DNA of 20,903 nucleotides, taken from UHGV virus genome UHGV-0121717; one strand, 5' to 3'. Every line of letters begins with the position of its first letter. Position 1 is the stretch's first letter. The position numbers and the translations under genes were made by a program. The stretch is from a virus. Below are positions 3,020 to 20,903 of this stretch, piece by piece. The notes beneath the pieces are model-generated. The model did not search any database. It was not told the DNA's origin and saw only the letters and a list, made by a program, of their open reading frames with translations.

Positions 3020-3376
3020 TCAGAATGGGATGGAATCGTCGTATACAGGAGTGTTCTGCTGGTTACTACTTTGCTGCTGCGGGCCATTTCCTGAAGCTGC
3101 AAATCCAATCTTTGCATTCAGTAATTCAAGAGTGATTGATTGACCATTTTGCCCCTGATAAACATCAACCCTGATGTTTTCTCCGGTAATTTCCACAATG
3201 CCACCTTCAACAAGAACGCTACGGTAGTAATCCGCTTGCGCTCCCGGCTTGACAAATACAACGGCGCTGTAGTTTGTCCATTCTTTCTTTTTTGTCTGGC
3301 GATCGTAATACTGAACGCCAGCACGGATGTTGAATCCGATATCTCCGCTCTGGTTATCTGCATCATCGTCTGCCTG
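3020..3376 (-). pseudogene. ssb-like single-stranded DNA-binding protein, 3' portion only (5'-truncated)
   Basis: Stop-to-stop frame gives ...GNGPQQQSSNQQNTPVYDDSIPF*, the Gln/Gly-rich linker and acidic IPF tail characteristic of bacterial-type SSB. No ATG in the frame; it is cut near 3340-3376 where Rz homology begins on the other strand. Confidence 0.45.
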
Positions 3377-3757
3377 TCATGGGCGGTTAATCATTACCGT
3401 GATAACGCCATTACCTATAAAGAACAGCGCGATAAGGCCGCATTCATTATCGCTGACATGCAGAAACGTCAACGCAATGTAGCAGAACTCGACGCCAGAT
3501 ATACAAAGGAGCTTGCTGATGCTAACGCGACTATCGAAAGTCTCCGTGCTGATGTTTCTGCTGGGCGTAAGCGCCTGCAAGTCGCCGCCACCTGTGCAAA
3601 GTCAACGACCGGAGCCAGCGGCATGGGCGATGGAGAAAGCCCAGGACTTACAGCAGATGCTGAACTCAATTATTACCGTCTCCGAAGTGGAATCGACAAG
3701 ATAACCGCGCAGGTCAACTACCTGCAGGAGTACATCAGGACGCAGTGCTTAAAATAA
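3140..3757 (+). CDS. Rz: Rz i-spanin homologue; true Rz homology covers 3341-3757, with the native start and first ~7 codons missing
   Basis: [32 protein letters not shown] matches lambda Rz residues 8-39 almost exactly, and the rest aligns to lambda Rz. The only ATG-initiated ORF (3140) begins 67 codons upstream in sequence antisense to the ssb-like fragment. Confidence 0.75.
3513..3704 (+). CDS. Rz1: Rz1 o-spanin lipoprotein, embedded in the +1 frame of Rz
   Basis: 63-aa ORF wholly inside Rz in another frame; signal peptide ending in the lipobox VSAC followed by a proline-rich stretch ([14 protein letters not shown]), as in lambda Rz1. Confidence 0.7.
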
Positions 3758-12378: not shown

Positions 12379-12552
12379 ATGGGATTGTTTACGACCCGCC
12401 AGTTACTCGGTTATACCGAACAAAAAGTTAAATTCCGTGCGCTGTTTCTGGAGCTGTTTTTCCGCCGTACGGTGAATTTCCACACCGAAGAGGTGATGCT
12501 GGACAAAATTACCGGAAAAACGCCGGTACCAGATACGTATTGCCGGTTATGA
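12379..12552 (+). pseudogene. E: Major capsid protein E, N-terminal 57-codon fragment (truncated)
   Basis: MGLFTTRQLLGYTEQKVKFRALFLELFFRRTVNFHTEEVMLDKI matches lambda gpE residues 1-45; homology then stops and the frame ends at TGA 12550-12552. AAAGGA ribosome-binding site retained. Confidence 0.75.
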
Positions 12553-13030
12553 CACGGCACCGGAGGCGGTGTACGCCCGTCTTCACGAACAGCTGGGTGA
12601 GGGAACGGTCATCCATATTGTGCCGCGACTGGCCGGGGCCGGAAAGGGTGGACTGCAGATTGTGCTGGGGGCGGCAGCCATCGTGGGCTCTTTCTTCACT
12701 GCCGGGGCATCAATGGCGTTATGGGGTTCAGCCCTGGCAGCCGGTGGTTTTTCTGCCACCACGATGCTGTTTTCACTTGGAGCCAGCATGATTCTGGGCG
12801 GTGTGGCCCAGATGCTGGCCCCGAAGGCAAAAACACCGGATTACCGCGCAACGGATAACGGCAGACAGAACACGTACTTTTCCTCGCTGGATAACATGAT
12901 TGCCCAGGGGAACCCGATGCCGGTGCCTTACGGGGAAATGCTGGTTGGCTCCCGCCGTATATCCCAGGACATCAGCACCCGTGATGAAGGCGGGGGCGGA
13001 AAGGTCGTGGTTATCGGGCGACAGGGATAA
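12497..13030 (+). pseudogene. I: Tail assembly protein I, C-terminal fragment fused out of frame to the E fragment
   Basis: A different frame from E reads ...RYQIRIAGYDTAPEAVYARLHEQLGEGTVIHIVPRLAGAGKGG...GGKVVVIGRQG*, aligning with the C-terminal two-thirds of lambda gpI. An in-frame stop lies at 12494-12496; the only candidate start is GTG 12569. Confidence 0.75.
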
Positions 13031-13270: not shown

Positions 13271-16200
13271 ATGGGCAAAGGTGGCGGCAAGGCGCACACA
13301 CCGCGTGAGGCGAAAGACAATCTCAAATCCACGCAGATGATGAGCGTGATTGATGCGATTGGTGAGGGACCGATAGAAGGCCCGGTGAAAGGCCTGCAGA
13401 GTATTCTGGTGAACAAAACCCCGCTGACGGACACGGACGGTAATCCCGTGATACACGGTGTGACCGCGGTCTGGCGTGCCGGGGAGCAGGAGCAGACACC
13501 ACCGGAAGGCTTTGAGTCCTCCGGCTCTGAAACTGTACTGGGTGTCGAAGTGACCAGGGAAAAACCGGTAACACGCACCATTACGTCAGCGAACATTGAC
13601 CGCCTGCGGGTGACCTTCGGGGTGCAGTCACTGGTGGAGACCACGTCAAAGGGTGACCGTAATCCGTCCTCTGTCCGTCTGCTGATTCAGTTACAGCGTA
13701 ACGGTAACTGGGTGACAGAAAAGGATGTCACCATTAACGGCAAGACCACCTCACAGTTCCTGGCCTCGGTGATTCTGGATAATCTGCCTCCCCGCCCCTT
13801 TAACATCCGGATGGTCAGGGAGACGGCGGACAGCACCACGGACCAGCTGCAGAACAGAACGCTGTGGTCGTCATACACCGAAATCATCGATGTGAAACAG
13901 TGCTACCCGAACACGGCCATTGTGGGGATGCAGGTGGATGCGGAGCAGTTTGGTGGTCAGCAGATGACGGTGAACTACCATATCCGCGGTCGCATCATCC
14001 AGGTGCCGTCAAACTATGACCCGGAAAAACGCACGTACAGTGGTATCTGGGACGGCAGTCTGAAACCGGCATACAGCAACAATCCGGCCTGGTGTCTGTG
14101 GGACATGCTGACTCACCCGCGCTACGGCATGGGAAAACGTCTGGGGGCGGCGGATGTGGACAAGTGGGCGCTGTATGCCATCGGGCAGTACTGCGACCAG
14201 ATGGTGCCGGATGGCTTCGGGGGCACCGAGCCGCGGATGACCTTCAATGCGTACCTGGCACAACAGCGTAAGGCGTGGGATGTTCTCAGTGATTTCTGCT
14301 CGGCGATGCGCTGTATGCCGGTATGGAACGGCCAGATTCTGACGTTTGTTCAGGACCGCCTGTCGGATGTGGTGTGGCCGTACACCAACAGCGATGTGGT
14401 GGTGGATGATAACGGCGTGGGGTTCCGCTACAGCTTCAGTGCCCTGAAGGACCGGCACACGGCGGTGGAGGTGAATTACACCGACCCGCAGAACGGCTGG
14501 CAGACCTCCACGGAACTGGTGGAAGACCCGGAAGCCATACTGCGCTACGGGCGCAATCTGCTGAAGATGGACGCGTTCGGCTGTACCAGCCGCGGTCAGG
14601 CCCACCGTGCCGGGCTGTGGGTGATAAAGACCGGACTGCTGGAAACGCAGACGGTGGATTTCACGCTCGGGTCACAGGGGCTGCGGCACACGCCCGGTGA
14701 CATCATTGAAATCTGTGATAACGACTATGCCGGGACCCTGACCGGCGGACGTATCCTGTCCATTGATGCCGCCAGCCGCACCCTGACACTGGACCGTGAG
14801 GTTACCCTGCCGCAGACCGGTACCGCCACGGTGAACCTGATTAACGGCAGCGGTAAGCCGGTGAGTGTGGACATCACGGCACAACCGGCCCCTGCCCGGA
14901 TACAGGTCAGTGCCCTGCCTGATGGCGTGGCGACATACGGTGTGTGGGGACTCTCCCTGCCGTCACTGCGCCGTCGCCTGTTCCGCTGTGTCGCCATCCG
15001 GGAAAACACGGACGGCACCTTTGCCATCACGGCGGTGCAGCACGTACCGGAAAAAGAAGCCATCGTGGATAACGGGGCCAGCTTTGAGCCGCAGTCAGGC
15101 ACCCTGAACAGCGTTATCCCTCCGGCAGTGCAGCACCTCACGGTGGAGGTGAGTGCCTCAGACGGCCAGTATCTGGCGCAGGCGAAATGGGACACGCCGC
15201 GGGTGGTGAAAGGTGTGAGCTTCAGTCTGCGTCTGACCAGCGGAAGGGGGGATGACAGCCGCCTGGTGACCACCGCCATCACCGCAGACACGGCGCACCG
15301 TTTCAGTGGTCTGCCGCCCGGGGAATACACCCTGACGGTCAGGGCGATTAACAGCTATGGCCAGCAGGGCGAACCTGCCACCACCACGTTCCGGATTGAC
15401 GCCCCGGCAGCGCCTGCCACCATTGAACTGATACCGGGGTATTTTCAGATAACGGCGGTCCCGAAACTGGCTGTATATGACCCGACGGTACAGTTTGAAT
15501 TCTGGTTTTCGGAACAGCAGATTGCGGATATCAGGCAGGTTGAAACCTCCGCCCGCTATCTTGGCACGGCGCTGTACTGGATAGCTGCCAGTATCAATAT
15601 CAAACCGGGCCATGATTATTACTTTTATATCCGCAGTGTGAACACCGTTGGCAAATCGGCATTTGTGGAGGCCGTCGGCCGGGCCAGCGATGATGCCGAA
15701 GGCTACCTGAATTTTTACAAAGGGCTGATTAATAAAACACATCTCGGTAAAGAGCTGCTGGAAAACGCTGAACTGACGGAAGATAACGCCAGCAGACTGG
15801 AGGCGTTTTCGAAAGAGTGGAAAGACGCTAACGATAAATGGAATGCCATGTGGGGCGTCAGAATTGAGCAGACCGAAGACGGTAAGCATTATGTCGCGGG
15901 GCTTGGCCTCAGCATGGAGGACACGGAGGACGGTAAACTGAGCCAGTTTCTGGTTGCCGCTAACCGTATCGCGTTTATTGACCCGGCAAACGGGAATGAA
16001 ACGCCGATGTTTGTGGCGCAGGGCAATCAGATATTCATGAACGACGTGTTCCTGAAATACCTGACGGCTCCCACCATTACCAGCGGCGGTAATCCTCCTG
16101 CATTTTCCCTGACACCGGACGGGCGGCTGACGGCGAAAAATGCTGATATCAGCGGTAACGTGAATGCGAATTCCGGGACGCTCAACAACGTCACGATTAA

Positions 16201-16660
16201 CGAGAACTGTCGGGTTCTGGGAAAACTGTCCGCGAACCAGATTGAAGGCGATCTCGTTAAAACAGTGGGCAAAGCTTTCCCCCGGGACTCCCGTGCACCG
16301 GAGCGGTGGCCATCAGGGACCATTACCGTCATGGTTTATGACGATCAGCCGTTTGACCGGCAGATTGTTATTCCGGCGGTGGCATTCAGTGGCGCTAAGC
16401 ATGAGAGAGAGCATACTGATATTTACTCCTCATGCCGTCTGATAGTGCGGAAAAACGGTGCTGAAATTTATAACCGTACCGCGCTGGATAATACGCTGAT
16501 TTACAGTGGCGTTATTGATATGCCTGCCGGTCACGGTCACATGACACTGGAGTTTTCGGTGTCAGCATGGCTGGTGAATAACTGGTATCCCACAGCAAGT
16601 ATCAGCGATTTGCTGGTTGTGGTGATGAAGAAAGCCACCGCAGGCATCAGTATCAGCTGA
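13271..16660 (+). CDS. J: Host-specificity / central tail fibre protein J
   Basis: 1129 aa, colinear with lambda gpJ with high identity over most of its length ([21 protein letters not shown]...). The last ~130 residues diverge from lambda. Confidence 0.9.
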
Positions 16661-17391: not shown

Positions 17392-18540
17392 ATGTCAGTA
17401 CAGATTTCAGGTGTGCTGAAGGATGGTACAGGAAAACCGGTACCGAACTGCACCATAGAGCTGAAAGCCGTGAGAACCAGCGAGACGGTGATAGTCACCA
17501 CGGTGGCAGAGCACCAGCCAGGCGAAACGGGCAGTTACAGCATGCAGGTTGAGCCGGGGCGTTATCGTGTGACCTTGTGCGTGGAAGGTCGTCAGCCGGC
17601 ATGCGCCGGCGAGATTGATGTCATGGCCGACGACGAACCGGGCACCCTGAATGCCTTTCTGCTCCGTGAAACGGATGCAGCGTATTATCCTGATGCACTG
17701 AAGAAGCTGGAAGCGGCGGCGGATGAGGCTGTGCGCAGGGCGCGAGAAGCTGCTGAGAAAGCCGAAACTGCCGTGGGGCCACAGGGACTGAAAGGCGACA
17801 CCGGAGCAACTGGTCCACAGGGACAGAAGGGGGACAAGGGCGATACAGGCCCGGCAGGGCCACCGGGGCCGAAAGGGGATAAAGGTGACAAGGGCGATAA
17901 GGGGGATACAGGTCCGAAAGGTGAGCAGGGCGATCCGGGCGGACCACAGGGACCGAAGGGCGACAAGGGGGATACAGGCCCGGCAGGTCCACAGGGGCCG
18001 AAAGGGGATACGGGAGCTGCAGGCCCGGCAGGGCCTCAGGGGCCAAAAGGGGATACGGGAGCCGCAGGCCCGGCAGGGCCTCAGGGGCCAAAAGGGGATA
18101 CGGGAGCCGCAGGTCCGGCAGGACCTCAGGGGCCAAAGGGAGACACGGGAGCTACAGGTCCGGAAGGTCCGCAGGGACCGAAGGGAGATACGGGAGCTGC
18201 AGGCCCGGCAGGACCACAGGGGCCAAAAGGGGATACGGGAGACACAGGCCCGGCAGGACCACAGGGACCGTCAGGAAGTCCTGACAGCGGACTGTTTGGT
18301 GTCGGTTCTTTTGTCCTTGCGGCATATTATGCGACTAGTTATTCGGGGGATATGGCACCGGGCTCAGCCATTGCCGGCTCATCACTGTCTGCATGTTGCC
18401 TTTCGGATGGAACTCCTCTGATTGCTTCCGCCAGTTTGGGGGAGACCATTTTACCGGGCACGTGGCGTGCATGTGGTCCGGTAATATGGACATATGCTGT
18501 AGGTAAAAGACAGGCAGGATTATTTCAGCGCATATCATGA
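17392..18540 (+). CDS. stf: Side tail fibre protein with a long collagen-like Gly-X-Y domain
   Basis: N-terminus [26 protein letters not shown] matches the lambda Stf N-terminal domain. It is followed by about 56 Gly-X-Y triplets ([15 protein letters not shown]... repeated) and a ~90-aa C-terminal domain. Confidence 0.8.
17776..18282 (+). repeat. Tandem 45-bp (15-aa) collagen-like coding repeats within stf
   Basis: At least five near-identical copies of GGCCCGGCAGGGCCTCAGGGGCCAAAAGGGGATACGGGAGCCGCA and diverged flanking copies. Strict G-X-Y periodicity with one interruption (GDPGGPQ). Confidence 0.85.
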
Positions 18541-18547
18541 GGAGGTC

Positions 18548-19156
18548 ATGGTGGATAAGGGAAAAGAGATTATTGCAGTACGAAATGCAGCCTACAACGA
18601 ATACGGCGGGATAAACTGTGAGGTGCAGTTTGAAGATGCGGTCAATGAAAAAGGAGAGCCGGTATGGCTGCCGTATACCGCAACGGAAACGGATAATACT
18701 GAACACGGAAAAGCCTTATGGTCTGGTCTGACAGCAGGAACATACGGAAGTGTGACCGCCTTTGTTGCCACGGCTGCAGTACTGGAAGCGGCAAAGGCAG
18801 CGAAACGGGAAGAGATTAATATCTGGCGTGATGTGCAGGAGAATATGGAATACGTGATGGAATTCAACGGAAGGAACTGGGATTACGGCAAGAAGACGTT
18901 GTCCAGGATAAGCACGACACGACTGATGGCAGAGAACAACCGTCTTCCGGAAGGTTTTGCCTGGACAGACGGGGATAATAATGTGGTGCCGGTAACGGCG
19001 GCGGAGATAATTGCGCTGGCAGATGCGACAGAGCAGGCGATGTTTGCGAAAGGTGTGGAGATTAATACACGTCAGCTTCAGATGAAAGCCGAGGTTGAGG
19101 CGCTGACAGAGCTGAAGGCGATCCGCAGTTATGTTATCGGATGGCCTGCAGGCTGA
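18548..19156 (+). CDS. Tail fibre assembly / chaperone-like protein (Tfa-like)
   Basis: 202 aa directly downstream of stf, with GAGGAGG overlapping the stf stop. The C-terminal LPEGFAWTDGDNNVVPVTAAEIIALADA... resembles the C-terminal domain of tail-fibre assembly proteins. Confidence 0.5.
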   Translation: MVDKGKEIIAVRNAAYNEYGGINCEVQFEDAVNEKGEPVWLPYTATETDNTEHGKALWSGLTAGTYGSVTAFVATAAVLEAAKAAKREEINIWRDVQENMEYVMEFNGRNWDYGKKTLSRISTTRLMAENNRLPEGFAWTDGDNNVVPVTAAEIIALADATEQAMFAKGVEINTRQLQMKAEVEALTELKAIRSYVIGWPAG

Positions 19157-19445
19157 GTAAAAAAAACGGGACCACGGCCAGTCCCGGAACCATGAGTTTT
19201 TTAGGGTATTAGTTTATTATCATAATTAGCGTGCTAAGTATGACTTAGTGTAGATAGTTACGAATGCAACCAGATTCTGCCACAGGAAATTCTGCTGTAA
19301 CTGTGATGCTGCTCGTATTTTTGCGGGCGTCAGTATTTTTCAGATTTTCGGAAGTCAATATATTGCCCGTGCGCGGTTACATGCTTCATTCGCGATGCCA
19401 TTTTTTCCGGATATAGCAAGTTCTCTGCATGTTGACGTTTTTTAG

Positions 19446-19694
19446 TCAGTGAATAAACCAGTCGTCCGCTGTTTCCCAGACATCCTGAAGCGTTTCTTGT
19501 ACAAACTCTTGCGCGGATTCTTTATCCACGGCTCTTAAAATAGTGAGTCCATCATTGCTGGCAGATTTAACGATAACATCTACATCGTCATAACGTTTAC
19601 TGATGCGTCGGGTTAATTCTTCCTTTAACGCATCCACAGCACCGGTTGGCATTTTAGTCATTTTTTCTTTGGCTATGCAGATTTCAATACGCAT
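19446..19694 (-). CDS. dinI: DinI-family DNA-damage-inducible protein
   Basis: 82 aa; [11 protein letters not shown]...[14 protein letters not shown] aligns with E. coli DinI (MRIEVTIAK...ETWESADDWF). GAGGG ribosome-binding site; LexA box immediately upstream. Confidence 0.8.
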
Positions 19695-19707
19695 AAAAGT
19701 CCCTCTA

Positions 19708-19755
19708 TACTGTGTTTGTATACAGTATTATTTTTAACTGTATGGATAAACAGTG
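19708..19755 (-). promoter_or_regulatory. Two tandem LexA (SOS) boxes upstream of the dinI-like gene
   Basis: TACTGTGTTTGTATACAGTA (19708-19727) and AACTGTATGGATAAACAGTG (19736-19755) both fit CTGT-N8-ACAG. Centres are 28 bp apart; the second abuts the integrase stop codon. Confidence 0.6.
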
Positions 19756-20853
19756 TCAAGAGGTCTTATTTCTGCTCCTTTGGAGCTCTTCAAAACGATT
19801 ATGTAAAGATTTCGGATACAGTTCGGTATATACCTGCCATAGCACGTTTAATGAACGATGCCCTGTAACCTGGGCGACTTCCTCAATACTAAAACCAGCC
19901 TCAAATAAGCGACTTGCCCCTTCTCTACGCAAATCATGGTATCGCAGATCTTTAATACCTAATTTGCTTCTTACCCTCTGGAATCCCGCAGTAACAGAAG
20001 TGCTGTTATATGGAAAAATGAATTCTGATTTTTTGGGTTGTCGTTGGACGATATCCCAGGCTTCCCCAAGCAAGGCTACTTTCATATGGTTGCCTTCCTT
20101 TTTACGTGGATCTTTCCTGTCTCTTACGAGTATGGATTTTTGTTCCTGATCGAGATCCTCCCATCGTAATCGGCATACTTCACCGATTCGCATACATGAC
20201 CACACAGAAAATTTGAGGATATCAACGAACGGAATTTTTGAGCATTTATGTGTAGATCGTTGTTGAAGACCTTCAATGAGCATGTCCAGTTCATCAGATG
20301 CCGGTCTACGATTACGACGATTTGATTTACCAATTAAACCAAGTTTAAGTAGATATGGACGAGCGGCTTTTGCTGGGTTTGATGTGTAATTAATTCCATA
20401 TACAGGTTTGGCAGCATCCAGAACACTGCCAAGATAACTAACATCGTGGCTAACTGTAGCTGGACCTGCACCAGCGTTGTTTCTTAGCCTGCAATGTTCA
20501 ATTACGTCATTTTCTGTCAGTTCAGATAGTTTGATCGCGGAGATGTCACTATCCATAAGCAGTTCCAGCACATATCTTTTAGTACGGCCTGCTTTACCTC
20601 CGGCATTTGGGTCATTTAAATATTTGCGTAGTAAGTCACGGACTGTAAGTCCGTCAACTGCATTTGATGATGGAATGCCATATAGATCTAATTCCATCAC
20701 TTTCTGTGTGCCCCATGTTTTGGCATGAGCATGTTTAGGGAATGTTTTGCTTTCCCTGTAAGTGATAACACCTTTTTCTTTGATAATCACATTACAGCGA
20801 TAGCGTGGTGTGCCATCGGATTTTAGTCGTTTCTCTATGTTATAGTACGCCAT
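19756..20853 (-). CDS. int: Tyrosine-type site-specific integrase
   Basis: 365 aa; C-terminal catalytic region ...RIGEVCRLRWEDLD...YHDLRREGASRLFEAGFSIEEVAQVTGHRSLNVLWQVYTEL with the R...HxxR...Y signature. GAGG ribosome-binding site. AT-rich relative to the J/stf module. Confidence 0.85.
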   Translation of the reverse strand: MAYYNIEKRLKSDGTPRYRCNVIIKEKGVITYRESKTFPKHAHAKTWGTQKVMELDLYGIPSSNAVDGLTVRDLLRKYLNDPNAGGKAGRTKRYVLELLMDSDISAIKLSELTENDVIEHCRLRNNAGAGPATVSHDVSYLGSVLDAAKPVYGINYTSNPAKAARPYLLKLGLIGKSNRRNRRPASDELDMLIEGLQQRSTHKCSKIPFVDILKFSVWSCMRIGEVCRLRWEDLDQEQKSILVRDRKDPRKKEGNHMKVALLGEAWDIVQRQPKKSEFIFPYNSTSVTAGFQRVRSKLGIKDLRYHDLRREGASRLFEAGFSIEEVAQVTGHRSLNVLWQVYTELYPKSLHNRFEELQRSRNKTS

Positions 20854-20903
20854 TACACGACCTCGTTATTTCGGGTTCCCATAAAGCGTGGGAACCTGTG
20901 CGG

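Follow-up and report, generated by a model that had tools for sequence, protein, structure and literature searches.

The negatively charged C-terminal helix of DinI is the proposed contact of this protein with RecA, and several LexA operators on one promoter are generally thought to tighten repression and delay induction; in lexA and the colicin genes, such boxes are adjacent or overlapping. LexA occupancy of the Klebsiella dinI has been detected by ChIP (PMC10907235), and the chromosomal dinI of Salmonella is listed with two boxes (PMC8072944). Moreover, homologues of dinI are carried by prophages. Those of the Salmonella Gifsy prophages have been proven by experiment to be LexA-regulated (PMC3121763, Lemire et al. 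2011), and nalidixic acid raises their expression 4.6 to 23-fold (PMC8072944). Non-polar deletions of dinI in Gifsy-1 and Gifsy-3 left induction without measurable change (PMC3121763), which makes any benefit of a prophage DinI protein questionable. A phage DinI that limits induction is plausible, and the idea has been voiced previously (PMC8456039).

Closer to the locus described here, one and the same dinI cassette, placed at the tail-fibre end of a lambdoid prophage, is found in prophage VT1-Sakai (H0001-H0002, AP000400), phage mEp460 (NC_019716 gp21) and phage 1720a-02 (KF030445), and the VT1-Sakai record annotates a promoter, a "putative SOS box" (the proximal one only), DinI and a YkgJ-like gene. 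The stretch analysed in this study (20,903 nt of the virus genome UHGV-0121717, hereafter the window) carries this cassette between a tail-fibre assembly gene and an integrase gene, and 1720a-02 is 98.9% identical to it over 19335-20903. It is an ordinary, previously annotated prophage cargo gene, a RecA-modulating DinI with its own promoter, two LexA sites and its own terminator. The kind is therefore known: public phage records already list the gene, the promoter and an SOS box, and experiments in Salmonella have demonstrated the principle. Very probably, the cassette is a "moron", an SOS-inducible piece of cargo complete in itself, and the mEp460-like lambdoid prophage that bears it at its right end is integrated at dusA.

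The dinI-like gene, its promoter and the two LexA boxes

The DinI-family coding sequence is located on the minus strand (19446..19694) and encodes a protein of 82 aa with an acidic C-terminal helix. It covers the whole Pfam DinI profile (PF06183; positions 1-63 of 63, E=1.8e-19, 70.3 bits vs a cutoff of 24.2) and aligns end to end with the E. coli DinI structures PDB 1GHH/7YWA (residues 1-81 vs 1-79, E=1.6e-13). By profile score and by full-length match, the acidic helix included, the protein belongs to the DinI family, which bears out the first-pass annotation of a dinI-like gene at this place. Its C-terminal helix aligns with EILQETWESADDWF of DinI with the acidic positions retained, and the pattern ...W-E-x-A-D-D-W-F is conserved between the two proteins. 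The dN/dS ratio of the coding sequence is about 0.2 (0.13-0.38 vs 31 other alleles), which indicates purifying selection and hence a functional protein, functionality being all that such selection shows. As well, an IS2 element is inserted within the dinI-like gene of the closest genome, so the gene is not essential. A Shine-Dalgarno sequence, GAGGG (19701..19705, minus strand), can be read 6 nt before the ATG and is kept as GAGGG or GGAGGG in relatives.

Upstream of the gene, a consensus scan found a minus-strand promoter with 10/12 matches over its -35 and -10 hexamers, the same promoter that is annotated in mEp460 (NC_019716) and VT1-Sakai (AP000400). The -35 hexamer TTGACA (19754..19759) includes the stop codon TGA of the integrase gene (19758→19756), while the predicted -10 element TAAAAAT (19730..19736) can be read either as TAAAAA with a 17-nt spacer or as AAAAAT with an 18-nt spacer. 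The distal LexA box (19736..19755, core 19738-19753; minus strand CACTGTTTATCCATACAGTT) fills the spacer between -35 and -10, and the proximal box (19708..19727, core 19710-19725; minus strand TACTGTATACAAACACAGTA) begins 2-3 nt past the -10 element and covers the predicted transcription start and the 5'UTR. Two CTGT-N8-ACAG operators 28 bp apart upstream of the dinI-like start, the second abutting the integrase stop, had been noted previously, and both statements agree with the sequence: the two are the only exact matches in the 20.9-kb window, 28 bp apart from start to start, and the distal 20-mer at 19736-19755 adjoins the stop codon at 19756-19758. With 0.27 matches expected in the window, two were reached by 2/100 shuffles.

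A weight matrix derived from 27 known E. coli LexA boxes was used to score the two sites further. The proximal box scored 23.5 bits and the distal box 22.3 bits, which places both in the upper third of those 27 known boxes, while the next-best LexA-like site in the window scored 9.4 bits and the best site over 50 shuffles 16.8 bits. Against the consensus TACTGT(AT)4ACAGTA, the two 20-mers deviate at 3 and 5 positions, all outside the CTGT/ACAG core. By sequence score, therefore, both resemble strong E. coli SOS boxes; they are palindromic, overlap predicted promoter elements and are conserved in orthologous promoters, as SOS operators are. From these features we infer LexA binding at both boxes and a transcription start within the proximal one.

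Conservation and autonomy of the cassette

Both boxes are retained in 65/70 related loci, which correspond to 24/29 distinct upstream sequences. The promoter region of the window is identical to that of mEp460, with a mosaic breakpoint at about 19578; this identity reflects recent shared ancestry, and thus only diverged alleles count as independent conservation. In the diverged alleles of VT1-Sakai and of one further locus (L094), 5-6 of the 8 spacer bases differ while CTGT/ACAG or CCAG is kept: the proximal box of the Sakai allele has 5/8 spacer bases changed and CTGT/ACAG unchanged, and the distal box is kept in the diverged alleles as CTGT..CCAG. Alleles differ in how far apart the boxes lie (27 to 29 bp), so cooperative binding of two LexA dimers is not implied. 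In addition, the BP-4795 and Pantoea alleles keep only one good box each, so some lineages can do without the second one.

Homology among the prophage contexts starts exactly at the -35 hexamer, with or without an integrase gene upstream, and the cassette is identical or similar despite unrelated upstream DNA in the O104:H4 yecD prophage, PhiR12 and the cdtI phage. As judged from these alignments, the cassette is self-contained and independent of the neighbouring integrase. It is present in 2083/5426 complete E. coli genomes (more than a third), with up to eight such cassettes in one genome. ETEC H10407, O104:H4 and O157 Sakai are among the strains that have it. A scan of one genome per species found only 6 relatives, because its patterns were limited to exact peptides from this allele, and thus carries little information on taxonomic range.

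The neighbouring integrase could nevertheless be the target of the LexA boxes, which would then act as a roadblock or as a 3'-end regulator and link integration and excision to the SOS response. The tyrosine integrase gene, of the dusA-targeting type (19756..20853, minus strand; Pfam Phage_integrase), is co-oriented with dinI, its stop codon adjoins the distal box, and the terminator scan predicted no terminator between the two genes. However, O104:H4, PhiR12 and VT1-Sakai (in which dinI lies about 225 bp from attL) have both boxes, equally far from the dinI ATG, without an integrase upstream, and in the cdtI phage they are accompanied by an integrase gene on the opposite strand, so the boxes travel with dinI. 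Moreover, int initiation cannot be repressed from a site that lies downstream of the stop codon, and regulation of the integrase is highly improbable. A role of the dinI-like gene in prophage induction itself, by inactivation of a non-cleavable phage repressor, has precedents in the Gifsy LexA-regulated operon, in which a dinI homologue is followed by a small antirepressor, and in Tum of phage 186, in which an N-terminal antirepressor domain is joined to a DinI-like half (PMC3121763); the cassette in the window likewise begins with a LexA-boxed promoter followed by dinI. Compared with Tum (about 146 aa), however, the 82-aa protein aligns to DinI alone, without an extra domain. Between dinI and the gene after it in the window, an antirepressor ORF was sought and rejected, as the YkgJ-family remnant follows the dinI stop directly and leaves no room for it, and even in longer copies only about 110-155 bp separate dinI from the ykgJ-like ATG. 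The gene downstream in the window, as in Sakai and O104:H4, is of the YkgJ type, whereas the Gifsy irsA homologue belongs to DUF1367; the YkgJ-like gene was thus rejected as a homologue of Gifsy irsA (STM1020 being DUF1367). Gifsy DinI, besides, is only 41% identical, and its operon is placed within the nin region instead of at the end of the prophage. As judged from the window, which does not contain the immunity region, we therefore consider an antirepressor-like function very unlikely and keep to the reading of the cassette as an autonomous cargo unit.

The segment downstream of dinI and the attachment site

Segment 19157-19445 (41.5% G+C) had been described as a non-coding stretch of roughly 290 bp with short repeats. 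The repeats are indeed present (ATTCTGC twice, GTATTTTT twice, and the inverted pair CTAAGT/ACTTAG), but the segment consists of a gene remnant and a terminator. What remains of a YkgJ-family (CxxCxxCC) gene (19340..19441, minus strand) is its final 33 codons, interrupted by a premature stop at 19357-19355; two-thirds of the gene, on the 5' side, have been lost directly after the dinI stop, and the remnant starts 5 nt past that stop. It aligns with longer copies in three related loci, L004 (the O104:H4 prophage), L005 and L008, its translation having been compared with the longer proteins. The O104:H4 copy gives a weak Pfam CxxCxxCC match, and in one of the closest lysogens (L002) a pseudogene is annotated by PGAP at the homologous place. 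Two small ORFs in this region, 19264..19416 (+) and 19245..19358 (-), were rejected as genes: they lie over the pseudogene and the 3'UTR without any family match, and at 19335 homology to the closest prophages breaks off.

The terminator scan placed an intrinsic terminator of the dinI unit at 19159..19186 (minus strand; CGGGACTGGCCGTGGTCCCG followed by TTTTTTTT), adjoining the stop of the convergent DUF4376 tail-fibre assembly-like gene (18548..19156, plus strand; Pfam DUF4376, E=7.7e-17). Its centroid hairpin has 8 pairs, with a folding energy no better than that of shuffles (z = -0.13), and what supports the call is the pattern of a stem plus a U-tract, together with conservation in the O104:H4 prophage, where this terminator comes after the longer ykgJ-like copy.

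The moderate A+T-richness of 19157-19445 and its short direct and inverted repeats had led to the proposal that the segment resembles an integrase or IHF arm site, and an integrase gene does lie nearby. This proposal of a recombination site bearing an attP arm is extremely improbable and was abandoned. In dusA-type integrases, the att core is on the other side of int, within the 5' end of dusA (for the family, see PMC4482086). Phage mEp460 and the closest lysogens, L002 and L003, each carry a dusA-associated integrase; in lysogens int is divergent from dusA, 88 bp apart, and mEp460 has some 104 nt from the 5' end of dusA upstream of int. The homology between phage and host ends there, which puts the att core some 250 bp upstream of where int starts, past the right end of the window (20903), which extends 50 bp beyond the int start and leaves dusA outside. 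The phage/host crossover thus lies inside dusA and not in 19157-19445, which is homologous to the YkgJ-family gene and terminator after dinI in prophages with other integrases and other att sites; the order tail fibre, dinI, integrase is the normal layout of mEp460-type phages. The repeats, moreover, were rejected as protein-binding sites, because direct 7-mers (3 vs 0.8 expected, p about 0.09) and inverted 6-mers (2 vs 0.75 expected, p about 0.19) in the segment do not exceed shuffled expectation, and one ATTCTGC copy is missing from a 90%-identical locus (L005). The 3' tail of the dinI transcript might, by analogy, be processed into a regulatory small RNA, as Klebsiella DinR is from the dinI mRNA's 3' end: the precedent is a dinI 3'-derived, Hfq-dependent sRNA (PMC10907235), and the untranslated tail here, roughly 280 nt long, closes with a strong terminator that has a U-tract. 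However, the tail is a gene remnant whose sequence has not been conserved alongside dinI, relatives differ in their 3' regions and terminators, homology to the closest prophages is lost within the tail, and DinR depends on a Klebsiella-specific stretch. The tail is also without an Rfam match, a scan of 19050-20903 having returned chance-level matches only (E 0.18 and 0.3, far under gathering scores). An sRNA-17 of E. coli K1 has been reported in an mEp460-like prophage (PMC7719688), and the 5' part of this RNA, as read off the primer table of that study, was absent from the window and from all 97 loci, a set that does not include the RS218 record. The probability of a derived small RNA is accordingly very slight.

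Proposed function and comparison with known systems

In the preferred reading of the cassette as an SOS-inducible cargo unit, the minus-strand unit consists of a sigma-70 promoter, two LexA operators, a Shine-Dalgarno sequence, the 82-aa dinI, a YkgJ stump and an intrinsic terminator, with the stump serving as a 3'UTR. In an undamaged lysogen, LexA dimers on both boxes would block RNA polymerase and perhaps also read-through from int. Upon DNA damage, RecA filaments would promote self-cleavage of LexA and the dinI promoter would fire. The DinI-like protein would then bind RecA filaments via its conserved acidic C-terminal helix and modulate the coprotease activity of RecA, adding to the chromosomal dinI pool; it may also affect prophage induction.

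What is new here is the autonomy of the cassette, with its boundary exactly at the -35 hexamer, the finding that two strong LexA boxes rather than one are usual in it, and the identification of the apparent att arm as a decayed YkgJ-family gene plus terminator. The role of a widespread, multi-copy, SOS-induced RecA modulator for prophages or hosts is a worthwhile question, though not a new one. It could be speculated, as an unlikely extension, that the double operator yields a tightly repressed, late SOS DinI and that the summed cassettes of a cell set the level of active RecA filaments, and thereby control both the timing of induction and the choice among co-resident lambdoid prophages, those of the Stx type included. 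If so, the cassette would be a phage-borne regulator of inter-prophage competition instead of passive cargo, and it might also affect survival under quinolones; a viral region that has been linked to the evolution of quinolone resistance contains a DinI-like gene (PMC10575684).

Among known systems, the closest counterparts of the cassette are those of VT1-Sakai, mEp460 and 1720a-02, with which it shares the -35 hexamer TTGACA, the 17-nt spacer and TAAAAA, the place of the SOS box ahead of a DinI-family gene, and the YkgJ-like gene that follows. The distal box, however, is imperfect in VT1-Sakai (CTGG...ACAG) and exact in the window, the ykgJ-like ORF has 66 codons there and is reduced to a 33-codon stump here, and the Sakai copy is beside attL of a yehV-integrating phage, while the copy in the window is beside the integrase gene. 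E. coli K-12 dinI (b1061; PDB 1GHH) has the same family and length, an acidic C-terminal helix and a LexA-regulated promoter, but identical residues occupy under half of the aligned positions of the two proteins. Unlike the cassette, with one box in the spacer and one just past the -10 element, K-12 dinI has a single box (ACCTGTATAAATAACCAGTA) overlapping the -10, and its 3'UTR is short. SOS induction of the dinI-antirepressor-irsA operon has been experimentally shown in Gifsy-1/-2/-3; that operon has one box overlapping the -10, followed by antirepressor and DUF1367 (irsA) genes, whereas the window is without an antirepressor gene. Two operators on one promoter, as here, are found in the multi-operator LexA promoters of lexA, recN, ydjM and the colicin genes, although the separation of the cassette boxes distinguishes them from those of lexA and the colicin genes. 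Finally, like other DusA-associated integrases (Farrugia et al. 2015, PMC4482086), the one here is divergent from dusA and the phage supplies a replacement dusA 5' end; the dinI cassette, however, lies outside this recombination module and occurs with other integrases too.

The dinI-like gene and its promoter

The minus-strand ORF at 19694→19446 encodes an 82-aa DinI-family protein, and its match to Pfam DinI (PF06183, 70.3 bits, E=1.8e-19) and full-length alignment with the solved E. coli DinI structures 1GHH and 7YWA (E=1.6e-13) bear out the DinI-like assignment made in the first-pass annotation. The acidic C-terminal helix is conserved, the aligned E. coli DinI stretch being EILQETWESADDWF. 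The coding sequence shows dN/dS of 0.13-0.38 against 31 other alleles (dS up to 0.8) and is under purifying selection. Between 19770 and ~19579 no difference separates the window from phage mEp460; about 30% of positions differ beyond, up to the end of dinI, where the 3' half matches the 1720a-02 type allele instead; a mosaic breakpoint is therefore placed inside dinI at ~19578 (codon ~39). In the closest genome (NZ_AP027829, locus L003 4547-6131), the dinI-like gene carries an IS2 in a prophage that is otherwise nearly identical (99.7%).

The 61 bp between the integrase stop and the dinI ATG read, on the minus strand, TTGACA-CTGTTTATCCATACAG-TTAAAAATAATA-CTGTATACAAACACAG-TATAGAGGGACTTTT-ATG. 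The 20.9-kb window contains just two exact matches to CTGT-N8-ACAG, at 19710-19725 (proximal box) and 19738-19753 (distal box), against 0.27 occurrences expected by chance. A LexA weight matrix from 27 E. coli boxes, which gives approximate scores, assigns 23.5 bits to the proximal 20-mer and 22.3 bits to the distal one. Both rank within the top third of known boxes, while the runner-up site in the window scores 9.4 bits and the best of 50 shuffles 16.8 bits; the first-pass observation of two boxes is confirmed. A consensus scan returned one good promoter in this region, with a predicted -35 hexamer TTGACA (19759→19754) and -10 element AAAAAT/TAAAAA (19736→19730) that together give 10/12 matches. 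The integrase stop codon falls inside the -35 hexamer, the -35/-10 spacer is taken up by the distal box, and the proximal box begins 2-3 nt past the -10 element, covering the predicted transcription start; a Shine-Dalgarno sequence, GAGGG, lies 6 nt ahead of the ATG. The same promoter element is annotated in the mEp460 RefSeq record. In the VT1-Sakai record (AP000400) it carries the label 'putative promoter of H0001 and H0002', and the misc_binding feature after it reads 'LexA protein, putative SOS box'. At the other end, a stem-loop, CGGGACTGGCCGTGGTCCCG, followed by eight T (19186→19159, minus strand) matches the intrinsic-terminator pattern and lies right beside the convergent tail-fibre assembly gene (DUF4376), at its stop. 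With its own promoter and terminator, the dinI unit therefore has its own predicted start and stop signals.

Conservation of the cassette and putative LexA control

Comparison of 97 related loci, drawn from annotated phages, E. coli genomes, IMG/VR and GTDB genomes, shows that the dinI cassette is autonomous. The DNA upstream varies: dusA-type prophages have the integrase 3' end there, and the O104:H4 yecD prophage, PhiR12 and phage cdtI have sequence unrelated to it. Similarity begins at the -35 hexamer in every compared prophage context, continuing through both boxes to the ATG. Two boxes are present in 65 of the 70 loci with enough upstream sequence (24/29 when counted as distinct upstream sequences). 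Both boxes are conserved. The identity of the window and mEp460 here stems from recent shared ancestry, so that pair adds no independent evidence, and the diverged alleles are the informative cases: in VT1-Sakai (CTGGTTATCCATACAG and CTGTACATAACTACAG) and in locus L094 (CTGTGTGAATAACCAG and CTGTATATTAAACCAG), spacer bases are altered and CTGT/ACAG, or the common variant CCAG, is kept. BP-4795 retains the proximal box only and a Pantoea allele the distal box only, so one box can suffice, and the box-to-box spacing of 27 to 29 bp among alleles argues against strict helical phasing between two LexA dimers. L094 (CACSKA010000001) is titled Chryseobacterium sp., yet its DinI cassette is 71% identical and carries a double LexA box of enterobacterial type, which suggests that the assembly is mislabelled or contaminated.

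The best-supported reading is that dinI would be a LexA-repressed cargo gene, for which direct experimental support comes from homologues only. In the lysogen, LexA at the two operators would hold the dinI promoter shut; DNA damage would remove LexA, and the DinI-like protein then made may act on RecA filaments, as DinI does. For DinI itself that action is established (Yasuda 1998 and 2001, Voloshin 2001 and Lusetti 2004, all cited in PMC3121763). In Gifsy-2, replacing the LexA box before the dinI homologue abolished mitomycin-dependent induction (PMC3121763), nalidixic acid induces the three Gifsy dinI homologues 4.6 to 23-fold (PMC8072944), and LexA occupies the Klebsiella dinI promoter according to ChIP (PMC10907235). 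For Stx phages, a brake on induction has been proposed (PMC8456039).

The gene is unlikely to act as an antirepressor in the manner of Gifsy or Tum: the 82-aa protein consists of the DinI domain alone, the YkgJ stump follows dinI too closely for an ORF to fit in between, and the gene downstream in Gifsy belongs to DUF1367, not to the YkgJ family. The boxes might otherwise be thought to control int, which is also unlikely because they accompany dinI in prophages where no int lies upstream. A DinR-like 3' sRNA released from the dinI mRNA is not supported either, as conservation of dinI does not extend to the 3' region, which has no Rfam match; nor does this DNA encode K1 sRNA-17, which was reported in an mEp460-like prophage.

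The prophage's right end

The tyrosine integrase (19756..20853, minus strand) lies upstream of dinI in the same orientation. Its start is 88 bp from a divergent dusA in the closest lysogens, upstream of int mEp460 carries ~104 nt from the 5' coding part of dusA, and the phage/lysogen homology terminates inside dusA, an int-dusA arrangement described for DusA-associated integrases (PMC4482086). This crossover places the att core ~250 bp upstream of the int start, past window position 20903. The position of dinI between tail fibre and integrase, which had drawn attention in the first pass, is real and is simply the right end of this prophage type, as in mEp460, with dinI and int pointing back toward the tail fibre. 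An inverted repeat, GGGTTCCCA-N7-TGGGAACC, shortly before the start of the integrase (20866-20891) is conserved in mEp460 and in lysogens and may be a regulatory or Int/Xis-related site of the int-dusA intergenic region.

The segment 19157-19445 had been described as non-coding, and its short repeats likened to those of integrase or IHF arm sites. Of a YkgJ-family gene (CxxCxxCC) it retains the final 33 codons (19441→19340, minus strand; translation compared with longer copies), the homologous stretch being labelled pseudogene by PGAP. Immediately past the dinI stop, a deletion has taken away that gene's 5' two-thirds, cysteine motif included. The rest is old 3'UTR and terminator, common to other prophages at potB and yecD. 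The arm-site reading does not hold with the att core outside the window. The repeats themselves exist; they are short. Direct 7-mers number three where 0.8 are expected (p about 0.09), and inverted 6-mers number two where 0.75 are expected (p about 0.19). One ATTCTGC copy is missing from a 90%-identical relative. In VT1-Sakai (L008, about 1370-1435), BP-4795 (L007, about 118-183) and the O104:H4 prophage (L004, about 3360-3425), ATGCCCCA(T/A) direct repeats precede the dinI promoter; these may be arm-type sites belonging to the integrases of those phages. VT1-Sakai dinI is ~225 bp from attL. These repeats are absent from the window.

Prophage YkgJ-family genes occur in many frameshifted lengths (86-110 aa), differing at T-runs and C-runs, as in loci L004, L040, L043, L054, L071, L081 and L083, where the neighbouring dinI remains intact; in most lineages the gene is decaying, or else it is slippage-prone. 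Elsewhere, the ORF for a lambda-E-like major capsid protein ends after 57 aa (12379..12552), with a gpI-like ORF (12569..13030) directly behind it and then J (13271..16660); the capsid-to-tail genes, an estimated ~9 kb in lambda, are missing, so the prophage looks defective. The side tail fibre protein (17392-18540) carries long collagen-like Gly-X-Y repeats (Pfam Collagen, three stretches) after a prophage tail fibre N-terminal domain.

Distribution and relation to known cassettes

The cassette, promoter included, was found at at least 80% coverage in 1791 of 5426 complete E. coli genomes, and any match to it in 2083, at up to eight places per genome. PGAP names the copies in E. coli genomes 'DinI-like family protein', and DinI homologues are present in 133 phage records. 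We found no explicit description, for the cassette of E. coli prophages, of the second, spacer-located box. The promoter, an SOS box, DinI and the YkgJ-like gene are all annotated already in the GenBank record of VT1-Sakai; the dinI cassette is thus already known, and the spacer-located second box is a small addition to it rather than a new kind.
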